From Flavobacteriia bacterium (lineage in GTDB: Bacteria > Bacteroidota > Bacteroidia > Flavobacteriales > Schleiferiaceae), in contig JABXHW010000007.1 of NCBI GenBank assembly GCA_013373425.1, positions 3,429 to 67,428 on the forward strand: a stretch of DNA of 64,000 nt, in the 5' to 3' direction. Shown one piece after another: positions 3,126 through 27,556 of this stretch. The translations under genes were made by a program, and so were the position numbers. Each line of letters begins with the position of its first letter. The first letter of the stretch is position 1. Below the pieces are notes generated by a model. That model worked only from the letters and a program-made list of their open reading frames with translations. It was not told the origin of the DNA and ran no database searches.

Positions 3126-3395
3126 TCTACTCGTTTACTCAATGCAGTGGCTGCGCTTTGAAAGTGTAAAGAAGGACGCAGGGAGCGCCCTTCTTGTACT
3201 TGTGAATCATCTTGACAACGTAATAATCTCTCTCTCGCTCTCTCAATTGCGTTGTCATGCTCTCTCAAACAGTGATGATTGCACGGCAGATTAACTCTGC
3301 AACCTCTCAATTTGCTGAACAAACATCGGGTGTATAACTGAAGTAGAATGGAACATTTCGACGAATGGTTCAGAATCTACGATAAATGGGTAAAA

Positions 3396-19184: not shown

Positions 19185-20726
19185 TTACAATGGAATGTTG
19201 CCGTGCTTCTTCTTAGGGAGCTTTACTGCTTTGTTCTCGAGCATCTTAAATGCCTTGATGAGTTTTTCACGCGTTTGCTCTGGGATGATCACTTCATCCA
19301 CATAACCGCGTGCAGCAGCGCGATAAGGGTTGGCGAAATTATCCGCGTACTCCTTCTCCTTCTCAGCTAGCTTTGCTTCAGGATCCTCAGCGTTGGCGAT
19401 CTCTTTTCTAAAGATGATTTCCGCCGCGCCTTTGGCACCCATCACGGCAATCTCAGCGCTTGGCCAAGCAAAGTTCATGTCGGCTCCAATGTGCTTGGAG
19501 TTCATTACGTCATATGCTCCACCGTAAGCCTTACGGGTAATTACAGTGATGCGTGGAACGGTTGCTTCGCTGAATGCATAGAGAAGTTTCGCACCGTTCG
19601 TGATAATCGCATTCCATTCTTGATCGGTTCCTGGAAGGAATCCTGGAACGTCTTCGAATACCAAAAGTGGAATGTTGAAGCTATCGCAGAAGCGCACAAA
19701 GCGTGCACCTTTTTGAGACGATTTGATATCGAGTACACCGGCCAAGAAAGCAGGCTGATTCGCAACAACACCGATAGACTTACCGCCGAGGCGAGCAAAT
19801 CCAACTACAATGTTTTCGGCGAAATCTCTGTGAACTTCGTTGAAGGTTCCCTCATCAACAACCTCAGAAATCACCTCACGCATATCGTACGGTTGGTTGC
19901 TGTTGTCTGGAACGATGTCGTTCAACTTCGGACGCGACTCATCTCCACCTTCATAAGGAAGGGCAGGAGCGTCCTCTTCGCAGTTTTGAGGAACGTAAGA
20001 AAGAAGAGTTTTGATGCCTTCGATACAGGCTACTTCATTCTGGTATGTGAAGTGCGTAACTCCTGATTTAGAAGCATGAGCGCTAGCTCCACCGAGTTCC
20101 TCACTTGTCACTTCCTCGTGAGTAACGGTCTTAACAACGTTTGGTCCCGTTACGAACATGTAGCTCGTATTCTCGACCATCATGATGAAGTCTGTGAGGG
20201 CAGGCGAGTAAACCGCTCCACCCGCGCAAGGTCCCATAATCGCACTGATTTGTGGAACCACACCTGAAGCTTGTGTATTTCTGTAGAAGATGTCGGCATA
20301 GCCACCAAGAGAAACAACGCCCTCTTGGATACGCGCGCCACCTGAATCATTCAAACCAATCACAGGAGCACCATTGTCCATAGCGAGGTCCATAATGCGA
20401 CAAATCTTTTCAGCGTGCGCTTCTGCAAGTGATCCACCAAGAACGGTGAAATCCTGAGCAAACACATAGATCAATCGGCCATTTACGGTTCCGTATCCTG
20501 TTACAACTCCATCGCCGTAGAACTTCATTTTGTCCAATCCAAACAAGTTGGAACGGTGAGTTACAAGGGCGCCAATTTCTTCAAAAGAGCCTTTATCAAG
20601 TAGCAATTCAATTCGCTCTCTGGCGGTTAGCTTGCCTTTCTCGTGTTGGGCGGCAATTCGCTTTTCACCTCCGCCAAGTTTTGACTCTGCTTGAATCTTT
20701 CTCAGTTCGTTGAACTTCTCACTCAT
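19185..20726 (-). CDS. pccB: Acyl-CoA (propionyl-CoA-type) carboxylase beta subunit
   Basis: [37 protein letters not shown] and KKHGNIPL motifs. Confidence 0.93.
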
Positions 20727-20759
20727 GGTAATAGAATTGTGGGGCGTGAAGATACGAAA

Positions 20760-20845
20760 AGGTGTTGAGGTTGGAAGGTTGTAGGTGCTCGGGTTGGTGG
20801 TGCTTACGTGCTAAGGTTGGTATGTGCTCAGGTGCTAAGGTTTTG
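20760..20845 (+). repeat. Degenerate 8-mer tandem array (AGGTGCTN/AGGTTGGN, about 11 units) upstream of the four-helix-bundle gene
   Basis: AGGTGTTG AGGTTGGA AGGTTGT AGGTGCTC GGGTTGGT GGTGCTT ACGTGCTA AGGTTGGT ATGTGCTC AGGTGCTA AGGTTTTG. Confidence 0.85.
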
Positions 20846-20912
20846 AAGATTGTTGATCGAGATTGGGAGGTGTAGAATTTGGTTCGCTTAACTTGATTGA
20901 AAAGTGAAAACC

Positions 20913-21290
20913 ATGGCGACCGTAAAGAATTATACGGAGTTGAATTGCTGGAAAGAGTCAAGACTACTAGTTCAATTGGTCTATTCTTATTCGAACAGGT
21001 TAGCTGAATTCAAACAGTTTAATTTGATTAATCAATTTGAAAGGGCCGCGGTTTCCGTAATGAACAATATTGCCGAAGGATTTGATCGATTGAGTCTAAA
21101 GGAAAAGATCAGGTTTCTCAATATTTCGGTATCAAGCGCTAATGAAGTCGATAGTATGACTTACATATTGCAAGACTTACAACTTCTCTCAGAATCTGAA
21201 GTAATGACCATACGAGAACAAGTGCGAATTACAAAGGCGAGAACATTGGCCTTCATCGTATACTTAAGGTCAAAGCTGAACACACGATAG
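20913..21290 (+). CDS. Four helix bundle protein (23S rRNA IVP / TIGR02436 family)
   Basis: Y.EL.CWKES...NQFERAAVSVMNNIAEGF.R....RFL.IS..SA.EV signature; oriented opposite to both neighbours. Confidence 0.92.
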   Translation: MATVKNYTELNCWKESRLLVQLVYSYSNRLAEFKQFNLINQFERAAVSVMNNIAEGFDRLSLKEKIRFLNISVSSANEVDSMTYILQDLQLLSESEVMTIREQVRITKARTLAFIVYLRSKLNTR

Positions 21291-21346
21291 TTAGCTCAAC
21301 AAGAACTCACACGGCCCGGTCAACTTGCTCATTTACTTGAGAGCGT

Positions 21347-21386
21347 TCCAACCTGAGCACCTGAGCACCCGAGCACCTCCCAACCT
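21347..21386 (-). repeat. 8-mer tandem array (5 units), inverted relative to 20760-20845
   Basis: Reverse complement reads AGGTTGGG AGGTGCTC GGGTGCTC AGGTGCTC AGGTTGGA; abuts the lepA stop codon. Confidence 0.88.
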
Positions 21387-23182
21387 TACTCATTCAACTT
21401 CAACACCGCCAAGAACGCCTGCTGTGGGATTTCCACGTTGCCGAGTTGACGCATGCGCTTCTTACCAGCTTTTTGCTTTTCGAGGAGTTTGCGCTTACGA
21501 GAGATGTCGCCACCGTAACACTTGGCGGTAACGTCTTTTCGGAGGGCAGATAGGGTTTCGCGGGCAACGATCTTCGCGCCGATGGCTGCCTGGATGGCAA
21601 TCATAAATTGCTGACGCGGGATGAGCTCCTTTAGCTTGTTACAGAGCTTTCTACCAATGTCTTGAGCTTTGCTCTTGTGGATGAGCGCGCTGAGGGCATC
21701 AACAGGCTCTGAGTTTAGAAGGATGTCCACTTTTACCAAATCCGACTGACGGTAACCAACAGGGTGATAGTCGAATGAAGCGTATCCCTTTGAAATAGTT
21801 TTCAATCGGTCGTAGAAGTCGAAAACGATTTCCGCCAAAGGCATATCGAATGTGAGTTCAACGCGATCTGCAGTGAGGTACGTCTGACCCACAATTTCTC
21901 CGCGCTTTTCAATACACAAGGTCATTACGGCACCGACGTAATCAGATTTAGTAATGATCTGAGCTTTGATATAAGGTTCCTCGATGTGACTCAAGATAGC
22001 CGGATCCGGGTAGTCACTCGGGTTGTTTACAATGAGTCGCTCATCTGGATTCTTCTTGGTATACGCATAGTACGATACGTTCGGAACCGTAGTAATCACG
22101 GTCATGTTGAACTCGCGCTCTAGACGTTCTTGGATGATCTCCATGTGAAGCATTCCCAAGAATCCACATCGGAAACCGAAGCCCAATGCAGCAGAAGTTT
22201 CTGCTTCAAATGTAAGGGAAGCGTCGTTCAATTGAAGCTTCTCCAGTGAAGCGCGAAGTTCTTCGAACTCCTCGGTGTCAACAGGATAAATACCTGCGTA
22301 AACCATCGGCTTCACTTCTTCAAAACCAGCAATAGCGGTAGTCGCAGGATTTTCTTTTGAGGTGATGGTATCACCCACCTTTACTTCTTTGGCTTCTTTG
22401 ATACCTGAAATGATGTACCCTACATCGCCTGCAGAAATCTCCTTCTTAGGATCTTTCACGAGTTTCAAGGTTCCAATTTCATCGGCATCGTATTCCTTGC
22501 CCGTGTTCATGAACTTTACACGCTGACCTTTCTTGATGGTACCGTTCTTCACACGGAAAATCGCCTCAATGCCGCGGAAAGAGTTGAATACACTGTCGAA
22601 GATAAGTGCTTGTAAAGGTGCGTGTACGTCACCTTCTGGAGCTGGAATACGATCTACAATCGCATCGAGGATATCACCTACACCTTCACCCGTTTTGGCT
22701 GAGGCAAGTAGGATGTCTTCGCGAGTACAGCCGATGAGGTCGATGATCTGATCACCTACTTCTTCAGGGTTCGAACTTGGAAGGTCGATTTTATTCAAGA
22801 TTGGAATAATCTCCAAATCGTGCTCAAGTGCCAAGTACAGGTTAGAAATCGTCTGTGCTTGGATGCCTTGAGTAGCATCTACGATGAGAAGTGCTCCTTC
22901 GCATGCGGCGATGGAGCGAGAAACTTCATAGCTGAAGTCAACGTGACCTGGAGTATCAATCAAGTTGAACTTGTAGGTCTCGTTGTTGTATTTGTGCTCC
23001 ATTTGAATGGCGTGGCTCTTAATGGTGATACCACGCTCGCGCTCCAAATCCATGTTGTCGAGAAGCTGGTTTTGCTTTTCTCGTTCAGTCACGGTTTGAG
23101 TCAAATCGAGCATTCGGTCGGCCAGGGTGCTTTTACCGTGGTCGATGTGTGCAATGATGCAAAAGTTGCGAATATTCTTCAT
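21386..23182 (-). CDS. lepA: Elongation factor 4
   Basis: [31 protein letters not shown] and [15 protein letters not shown] motifs. Confidence 0.99.
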
Positions 23183-27411: not shown

Positions 27412-27556
27412 ATACGTGAACACGGATGCACGTGAGCACGTAGGCACTTCAGCCCACATACCTCTTGGTGATAACAGCCCGTGCAAGTGAACATATCGTT
27501 TGCAGCCCAAGTATCCAGTATCCAGTATCCAGTATTGAGTATCAGTATCCAGTATT
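27412..27556 (+). repeat. Composite repeat element, copy 1: 8-mer array + 37-bp core + 7-mer array
   Basis: GCACGTRR-type units 27412-27447; core 27472-27508; CAGTATY-type units (about 7) 27509-27556. Confidence 0.85.

Follow-up and report, generated by a model that had tools for sequence, protein, structure and literature searches.

Why does a small gene stand antisense between lepA and pccB in a Schleiferiaceae genome, with tandem octamers before it and their reverse complements behind it, and do these arrays act in DNA or in RNA? The gene lies at 20913-21290 on the plus strand of a 64,000-nt stretch (hereafter the window; Flavobacteriia bacterium assembly GCA_013373425.1, contig JABXHW010000007.1, positions 3,429 to 67,428). 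It has 125 codons and matches PF05635 at 94.1 bits (cut-off 33.8) and TIGR02436 at 84 bits (cut-off 24), and these matches and the open reading frame (ORF) list agree with a first-pass annotation that had placed a TIGR02436-type gene antisense at this site. We compared its genome (G000, a 76-contig draft of 3.09 Mb) with four sister species (G001-G004) and with wider samples. Similarity of lepA assigns G000 to an Owenweeksia-like genus of flavobacteria. Gene and arrays prove to be one example of a widespread cassette type, and we lean slightly towards the view that the window's copy is looped out of the lepA-pccB transcript in the manner of an intervening sequence (IVS) of 23S rRNA, probably with cutting by RNase III.

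On the plus strand, the G-rich arm, array A, occupies 20760-20846 with ~11 units of AGGTGCTN/AGGTTGGN and is followed by a leader (20847-20912) that runs to the ATG. Behind the gene, a 3' spacer (21291-21345) leads to the C-rich arm, array B (21346-21386), whose five units, TTCCAACCT GAGCACCT GAGCACCC GAGCACCT CCCAACCT, are the reverse complement of those in array A and the last of which shares one base with the lepA stop codon (TTA, 21386-21388). Both host genes are read from the minus strand: lepA (EF4; 21386-23182; PF00009 and PF06421) lies upstream, and pccB (propionyl-CoA carboxylase beta/carboxyltransferase; 19185-20726; PF01039 at E=6.8e-204) lies downstream. On that strand array B is a G-rich 5' arm beginning at the lepA stop, and array A is a C-rich 3' arm ending 33 nt before the pccB start. 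The unit counts given in the first-pass annotation, about 11 before the gene and five after it with the last abutting lepA, agree with the sequence, with repeat finding and with Tandem Repeats Finder (TRF). Array A is covered by direct-repeat families D1, D3, D4 and D8, inverted pairs I1-I7 and TRF periods of 8 and 24; array B is covered by D2, the same inverted pairs and a TRF period of 8 (3.5 copies, 90% matches).

The two arms are complementary over 30 nt at 87% and over 19 nt at 95%. Their inverted-flank Smith-Waterman score of 40 exceeds the 99th percentile (29.8) and the maximum (32) of 421 control ORFs, and a second scoring, calibrated on arms paired across different loci, gives 48 against a 99th percentile of 36. 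The ORF itself, at 37.8% GC, is AT-richer than pccB (48.1%), lepA (47.1%) and the window as a whole (46.5%), as had been suspected from a spot count. No known RNA family was found by Rfam in 20000-22000 at E<=1.

Inverted arms are a general feature of this gene family. Each of the four PF05635 genes of G000 is preceded by an array and followed by the reverse complement of that array, and no two of them share a unit (ATACTGA/CCAGTAT; AGGTGCTN/NAGCACCT; GGAACGCA/TGCGYTCC; GTAACGR/YCGTTAC), and the search for such arrays at other family members that the first-pass annotation had proposed found them in other Bacteroidota and in other phyla as well. For 33 PF05635 loci from 41 related genomes the median inverted-flank score was 28, compared with 19 for the 421 control ORFs (p=7e-10), and the direct-repeat score of the same loci was at background. 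Arms are complementary within a locus, not between loci: among 63 Bacteroidota loci, same-locus arms scored a median of 32 and different-locus arms 20 (p=2e-20). The arms have periods of 7 or 8 only, apart from one of 6, and wherever both were periodic the two periods were equal (12/12 loci); period 7 was seen in 0/400 control windows. The ORF lies ~8 GC points under its flanks and is AT-richer than they are in 97% of 63 loci.

Matched inverted arms with a median length of 36 nt were clear in 103/141 sampled Bacteroidota loci, a fraction (73%) that describes the best-scoring Bacteroidota genes under a loose criterion and does not extrapolate to the family. In 90 of these 103 loci the 5' arm is richer in G than in C. 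Since the arms are inverted, either strand shows the same polarity, G-rich arm first and C-rich arm last. Of 151 Bacteroidota genomes sampled, 119 carry the family, with as many as 19 copies per genome; one genome, G089, holds 15 intact copies, each with its own unit. Beyond Bacteroidota, the single family gene of Xanthomonas, the Xcc0516 orthologue, stands in the accB-accC spacer behind GGGAATC units and ahead of GATTCCC units, an arrangement repeated in Luteimonas. Among cyanobacteria, Moorena and Egbenema have arms made of GGGAACA, GGTGTTA, GAAGTYW, GGGGTGT and AGTGAGG arrays, with the polarity seen in Bacteroidota. The cassette design spans at least three bacterial phyla. Features particular to the window's cassette are its octamer units, its antisense position and the many arrays of the same unit in its genome. 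At three loci (L007, L133 and L153, in G009, G098 and G061) the cassette seemingly lies within a longer reading frame (...SFVTIGEPD...), where its arrays could be translated.

The first-pass annotation took the arrays for the ends of a mobile or self-propagating unit. Comparison of filled and empty sites sustains part of this. The adjacency of pccB and lepA is confined to the window's genus; none of the 80 closest lepA loci outside it has pccB alongside. Within the genus, the closest sister, G004, has the orthologous gene antisense in the same spacer, with arms CTTAGGG/CCCTAAG; orthologous cassettes change their arm unit yet stay complementary. The pccB-lepA spacers of G001 (338 nt) and G002 (562 nt) hold neither gene nor arrays, and that of G003 (368 nt) has no gene and keeps two direct arrays of other units. 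Eight genomes that lack a cassette at the fadB-thiolase junction have spacers of 5-40 nt and no arrays there, and four genomes of the same bacterial family have cassettes with four different units at that junction. The observation that gene and arms are gained or lost together, in G004 versus G001 and G002 and at the eight empty fadB-thiolase sites, supports their behaving as a single inserted unit. A target duplication, which the proposed alignment of empty lepA-pccB sites was meant to define, was not discernible between filled and empty sites, although the empty spacers have diverged too far for this negative to be firm. Mobility did not emerge from these comparisons either: we found no near-identical paralogues and observed neither movement nor a transposase. 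The arrays are not simply the ends of the element, because arrays of the same and of other units are common without the gene, in the G003 spacer and across the genome.

Cassettes instead appear to be old residents of their sites. In a protein tree, the cassettes of a bacterial family cluster according to where they are inserted (15 label changes versus 32 when shuffled), and this clustering indicates long vertical descent. The fadB-thiolase cassettes are not monophyletic, so repeated insertion is likely as well. Between orthologues, dN/dS values of 0.02-0.23 show strong purifying selection on the protein.

Several observations point to a role of the arms in RNA. Of 63 cassettes, 46 are co-oriented with both neighbours and therefore lie inside operons. 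At 67 co-oriented loci, with a median spacer of 473 nt, the median start of the 5' arm is -5 nt relative to the end of the host stop codon, and the end of the 3' arm is at -1 nt relative to the ATG of the following host gene; with this placement, folding would make the two host cistrons meet at the foot of a stem. The window follows this rule on the host strand, where the G-rich arm starts at the lepA stop, and no terminator-like site was found between pccB and lepA there. As the first-pass annotation had proposed, the arms can pair in RNA: in the predicted fold of 20745-21400 they do so on both strands, in minimum-energy and centroid structures alike (z=-4.8 and -5.2), giving a predicted stem of ~36 bp that closes a loop of ~450 nt with the AT-rich ORF. 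Mismatches between arms comprise 191 G.U and 139 A.C on the sense strand (58:42, p=0.005). An A.C mismatch on the sense strand is a G.U on the antisense strand, so strand-symmetric mutation predicts equal numbers at any composition, and the excess of G.U suggests selection on pairing in the sense RNA. In G001, a terminator-like hairpin follows lepA, by eye (L124:460-500; GGCCCGGG...CCCAGGCC and a T run), and G000 has none, so that co-transcription of lepA and pccB may occur only where the cassette is present.

In the model that we favour, a host transcript reading through from lepA to pccB on the minus strand would loop the insert out, as the stem of a 23S rRNA IVS does, and this stem would be a likely substrate of RNase III, which G000 encodes (C63:158634-159002). 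The base of the stem could hold the two host cistrons side by side. A ribosome terminating at the upstream stop codon might then open the stem base and so expose the downstream gene's G-poor leader; a requirement that this leader be the C/A-rich arm would account for the fixed polarity. The protein would most likely be a nucleic-acid-binding partner of its own arms.

Other observations weigh against this model. The stems are imperfect, with ~80% Watson-Crick pairs, the G.U excess is modest at 58:42, and arm pairing and RNA processing are predictions. In one G000 cassette, that on contig C10, a terminator-like hairpin (by eye) stands between the ORF and the 3' arm, so its own transcript may stop short of that arm. 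Single partnerless arrays of the same units are common and leave a pure RNA-stem model incomplete. In two pairs of orthologues, divergence of the 5' arm is close to the synonymous rate, which indicates that selection for pairing is not strict. A study of Coxiella reports that the protein encoded in its IVS may not be made in vivo (PMC4990558). Comparing L130 with L134 and L135 with L148 by eye, we see ~5-12% differences in the 3' arm and ~25% or more in the 5' arm, which suggests that the leader of the downstream gene constrains the 3' arm.

What might the protein contribute? Its AlphaFold monomer model has four helices at a predicted local distance difference test (pLDDT) score of 96.5, a four-helix bundle. 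Foldseek ranks Xcc0516 (2GSC) first, with template modelling (TM) scores of 0.82-0.86 query-normalised and 0.90-0.94 target-normalised and a root-mean-square deviation of 1.2-1.3, followed by BT_0352 and then by Avd of the Bordetella phage diversity-generating retroelement (DGR) and Avd chains of the DGR ribonucleoprotein; for Avd (4DWL) the TM scores are 0.73-0.75 and 0.81-0.86, respectively. The structure 2RLD is also matched, and phmmer against the PDB finds 2GSC at E=2.8e-13. The matches to 2GSC and 4DWL bear out the connection of this family to 23S rRNA IVSs and to the Avd fold that had been drawn at first pass. Both 2GSC and 2RLD are listed as five chains (A-E) in the Foldseek results. 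We take Xcc0516 (2GSC), BT_0352/2RLD and Avd (4DWL) to be homopentamers, and by analogy the window's protein is probably pentameric like Xcc0516 and Avd.

The likeness to Avd does not extend to its setting. The window holds no reverse transcriptase, as had been stated at first pass; the sole PF00078 match of G000 is on another contig, C44, and the four sister genomes have none. Because no reverse transcriptase is adjacent, the gene is not a DGR accessory gene. On C44, the reverse-transcriptase gene lies 2.4 kb from an inverted pair of GGGTACT arrays round a 174-aa membrane-like ORF (C44:19007-19552, C44:21959-22693). A telomerase-like synthesis of the arrays by a reverse transcriptase was also considered and rejected, as most cassette-bearing genomes, including all four sisters, are without PF00078. 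Two other ideas were rejected too. Loading of Rho, with the unpaired C-rich arm as a Rho utilization (rut) site, does not explain the polarity, which is the same in Moorena and Egbenema; cyanobacteria are not known to have Rho. A defence or phage origin found no match in PADLOC or among PHROGs.

The non-coding parts of the cassette are conserved in places. By eye, all four G000 cassettes and those of the sister species share GAGATT(C) ~52-58 nt ahead of the ATG (20860-20865 in the window), and in the window's genus, where cassettes are antisense or unlinked to their neighbours and 74-86 nt separate the arm from the ATG, TGAGATTC lies ~55 nt ahead of the start codon and CTCAC(AC)GGCCCG behind the stop codon. 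In the 3' spacer of the window, CTCACACGGCCCGG (21306-21319, read by eye) resembles CTCACGGGCCG in the spacer of the C21 cassette. In G089, seven copies (L314-L317, L319, L322 and L323) have a leader of the form TTTTGTAAGGAAT-N14-16-GCTCTTAC between the 5' arm and the ATG. As sequence motifs, these conserved non-coding elements may be promoters or RNA elements. Reading the window's leader revealed neither a canonical Bacteroidetes promoter (TTG ... TAnnTTTG) nor any promoter-like site inside it, and a sigma-70 scan was at background (two weak sites in the whole region versus 1.1 expected). A promoter of its own is nonetheless probable for the gene in the window's genus, because it is antisense to its hosts behind a conserved leader.

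Arrays of this kind are abundant beyond the cassettes. TRF finds ~300 arrays of period 7 or 8 in G000, ten times the shuffled expectation (397 rows versus 30 in the shuffled genome), and 36 of 152 contig ends are such arrays; being intergenic, tandem and over-represented, these 7-8-nt units are heptamer and octamer simple sequence repeats (SSRs). With ~300 of them across the genome, arrays per se are not specific to the PF05635 gene. Some belong to a composite dispersed element of fixed order, found in both orientations, that comprises a GGGTACT array, GTTCTGAACAA, an ATACTGG array, a CACGTGC-type core and a GCTCCTGC array; it occurs in the window at 27414-27555 and elsewhere in G000 at C47:46823-46972, C70:27277-27471, C59:8572-8726, C35:65944-66077, C54:37780-37911 and C76:49947-50038, and its CCAGTAT-TTGTTCA end is similar to the end of the 3' arm of the C21 PF05635 cassette. 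Matched inverted arrays also bracket a phnA-like gene (C57:76509-77007) and yidC (C70:17913-19364), here with the C-rich array first, as expected for a host gene between two G-to-C elements; those round hflK-hflC (C29:9262-11451) have the G-rich array first. Immediately behind lepA in other flavobacteria we saw gene-less hairpins of inverted 7-nt arrays, G-rich first (L106:2885-2966 and 3291-3360; L090:5790-5870), and in L106 two near-identical hairpin copies bracket a small gene beginning MSNNDIMKKLRVALK.

Gene-less arrays are the ground of the main rival explanation, a pair acting on DNA that resembles REPINs, hairpin-forming doublets of repetitive extragenic palindromic (REP) sequences, and their REP-associated tyrosine transposases (RAYTs). 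Each PF05635 paralogue would bind, maintain or spread arrays of its own unit, with gene-less hairpins and single arrays as non-autonomous offspring; we regard this as possible though doubtful, and it is compatible with an RNA role of the stem. The gene lies between two inverted repeat copies, as a RAYT lies between REPs, and vertical inheritance with a single gene per unit is likewise as in RAYTs (PMC5581495). The four G000 cassette units are found in four of the five commonest array families of the genome (GGGTACT/ATACTGG, 89; GCAGGAAC, 29; AGGTGCT, 16; GTAACGA, 15), and the window's AGGTGCTN recurs in at least 11 other G000 arrays, but the abundant families GTGAGCTG, TGGAGAAC and TAGACT have no gene in the assembly, and the unit-to-gene match is only weakly unlikely by chance (a rough estimate of ~0.07). 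Seven of ten arm units tested in G089 recur elsewhere without an ORF: AATATCGA at ~17 sites, mostly as single arrays directly after stop codons, and GTGAGTATTGAG, GTGAAAAG and, from an eleventh cassette (L319), GAGTTGAAAG as gene-less hairpins. In G003, GAGGGTT arrays stand both round a cassette and in the pccB-lepA spacer. The one Xanthomonas gene has GGGAATC arms, and this unit forms arrays in 117 intergenic regions of Xanthomonas campestris (Xcc), with 70-75 convergent pairs (PMC4692102); yet 80 8-kb loci at GGGAATC arrays from many taxa contained no adjoining PF05635 gene, and Moorena has GGGAATC arrays without GGGAATC arms among the PF05635 loci examined. A median arm of 36 nt amounts to ~five units and would fit a pentamer, whereas the protein is a 125-aa helical bundle without a known catalytic domain, and no movement of a cassette has been observed. 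Tentatively, and with some reserve, PF05635 pentamers and 7/8-nt arrays could be seen as a two-part, mostly vertically inherited system in which each paralogue recognises ~five of its own units, gene-less hairpins and arrays are derivatives, and the system settles in transcribed DNA, where it would occupy cistron junctions and the loops of hairpins.

A conventional transposon or miniature inverted-repeat transposable element (MITE), with the arrays as terminal inverted repeats for a transposase encoded elsewhere and the gene as passenger cargo, would explain why gene and arms are jointly present or absent at orthologous sites, why the fadB-thiolase junction has been filled in different bacterial families by non-monophyletic proteins, which suggests repeated insertion, and why the ORF is so regularly AT-richer than its flanks. 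We nevertheless judge it improbable: the arms differ at every copy in the genome, so a single transposase could not recognise all of them; neither terminal inverted repeats common to the copies nor a target-site duplication was found; there are no near-identical paralogues; and strong purifying selection and clustering by site mark the cassettes as old residents. Coincidence is even harder to sustain. The number of period-7/8 arrays in the genome and at its contig ends, and the gene-free arrays in the G003 spacer, would suit a slippage-prone spacer filler in which the inverted arrangement has no function. That reading, to which we give very little credence, already conflicts with the control-gene tests and with the scores of same-locus versus different-locus arms, and it leaves aside the matched arms at all four G000 genes, the same design in three phyla, the fixed polarity and the position of the arms at host stop and start codons. 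An invertible switch, in which recombination between the arms flips the gene from sense (ON) to antisense (OFF), appeals to the antisense orientation of the window's copy, when 46 of 63 others are sense, and to inverted repeats of 30-70 nt. It is hardly credible, and we rejected it: the orientation is identical in G000 and its sister G004, the antisense copies of the genus have a conserved leader of their own, no invertase is nearby, and the arms are only ~80% complementary.

Among known systems, the IVS is the one whose anatomy our preferred reading of the cassette borrows. The 23S rRNA IVS of Coxiella burnetii encloses a PF05635 gene in a terminal stem of 28 bp, which is cut midway by RNase III, and ORF-bearing IVSs are also present in Leptospira (PMC4990558, citing Ralph and McClelland 1993). 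IVSs and cassettes have in common the PF05635 gene, an element size of ~0.4-0.5 kb, terminal inverted repeats that form a stem round the ORF, an ORF AT-richer than its host, and a mobility long suspected with no mobility gene known. They differ in site, since cassettes lie between protein-coding genes (the window's in the pccB-lepA spacer, not in a 23S rRNA helix) and IVSs in helix 9, 25 or 45 of 23S rRNA; in arms, which in cassettes are locus-specific tandem 7-/8-nt arrays of fixed G-to-C polarity; and in evidence for RNase III cutting, demonstrated for IVSs and inferred for the cassette. In the literature that we searched, the stem-plus-ORF design was found only for rRNA intervening sequences (PMC4990558), and convergent GGGAATC pairs are described without a gene (PMC4692102); by that literature, the cassette is an undescribed variant of the ORF-bearing IVS.

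In REPIN-RAYT systems, inverted copies of a repeat flank a gene, hairpins and singletons of that repeat are scattered elsewhere, and every paralogue has its own repeat family (PMC3116915, PMC3337134, PMC5581495). Cassettes are alike in having a vertically inherited gene that is single-copy for its repeat, inverted flanking copies, gene-less hairpins and singletons in spacers (as found in G000 and G089), and different paralogues paired with different repeat families. They are unlike them in protein, repeat and dispersal: PF05635 is the sole domain of a small four-helix bundle, whereas a RAYT is a Y1/HUH transposase; cassette repeats are tandem arrays, whereas REPs are single palindromes; and many cassette genomes have few or no dispersed copies. 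Heptamer SSRs are known as GGGAATC in Xanthomonas and GGGGA(C/T)T in Nostoc (PMC4692102) and as TAACTGA in Beggiatoaceae, cyanobacteria and Bacteroidetes (PMC4679880). Like cassette arms, they are intergenic tandem 7-nt arrays near gene ends, and the 70-75 convergent GGGAATC pairs of Xanthomonas have their G-rich strands facing each other (PMC4692102). The parts of PMC4692102 and PMC4679880 that we read draw no link between arrays and PF05635, whereas here the Xanthomonas PF05635 gene lies within a convergent pair.

Avd (PDB 4DWL, 8UB7) has the same fold as the cassette protein and forms a pentamer that contacts nucleic acid and a partner enzyme. Sequence identity is 7-10%, the cassette has no adjacent reverse transcriptase, template or variable repeats, and most cassette-bearing genomes are without any reverse transcriptase. 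Lastly, 23S_rRNA_IVP genes in cas operons, for example between cmr3 and cmr2, have been read as a functional link to CRISPR-Cas (PMC3936711). There too a family gene stands between two genes of an operon, and the motif GxxRxxxSxxxNxxE is conserved in both settings; flanking arrays are not described in PMC3936711. By analogy with the cassettes, this suggests that the cas-operon genes of the family are ordinary cassette insertions into operons.

PF05635 is among the commonest small gene families of unknown function, and its pentameric protein has had a structure without a function since 2006. The fixed anatomy of the cassette, with complementary arrays peculiar to each locus, a set polarity, arms that reach to the stop and start codons of the host genes, and a selectively constrained, AT-rich ORF, provides concrete hypotheses for that protein, and tractable family members are at hand in Xcc0516 (Xanthomonas campestris, accB-accC) and BT_0352 (Bacteroides thetaiotaomicron). 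For genome annotation, cassettes account for many long spacers within operons and for many contig breaks at arrays. The design links three topics that are kept apart in the papers we read, namely rRNA IVSs, heptamer arrays and family genes wedged in operons, those of cas included. If the two-part system should prove true, it would unite the ORF-bearing 23S rRNA IVSs, the excess of heptamers in cyanobacteria, Xanthomonas and Bacteroidota, and the role of Avd-like proteins outside DGRs.

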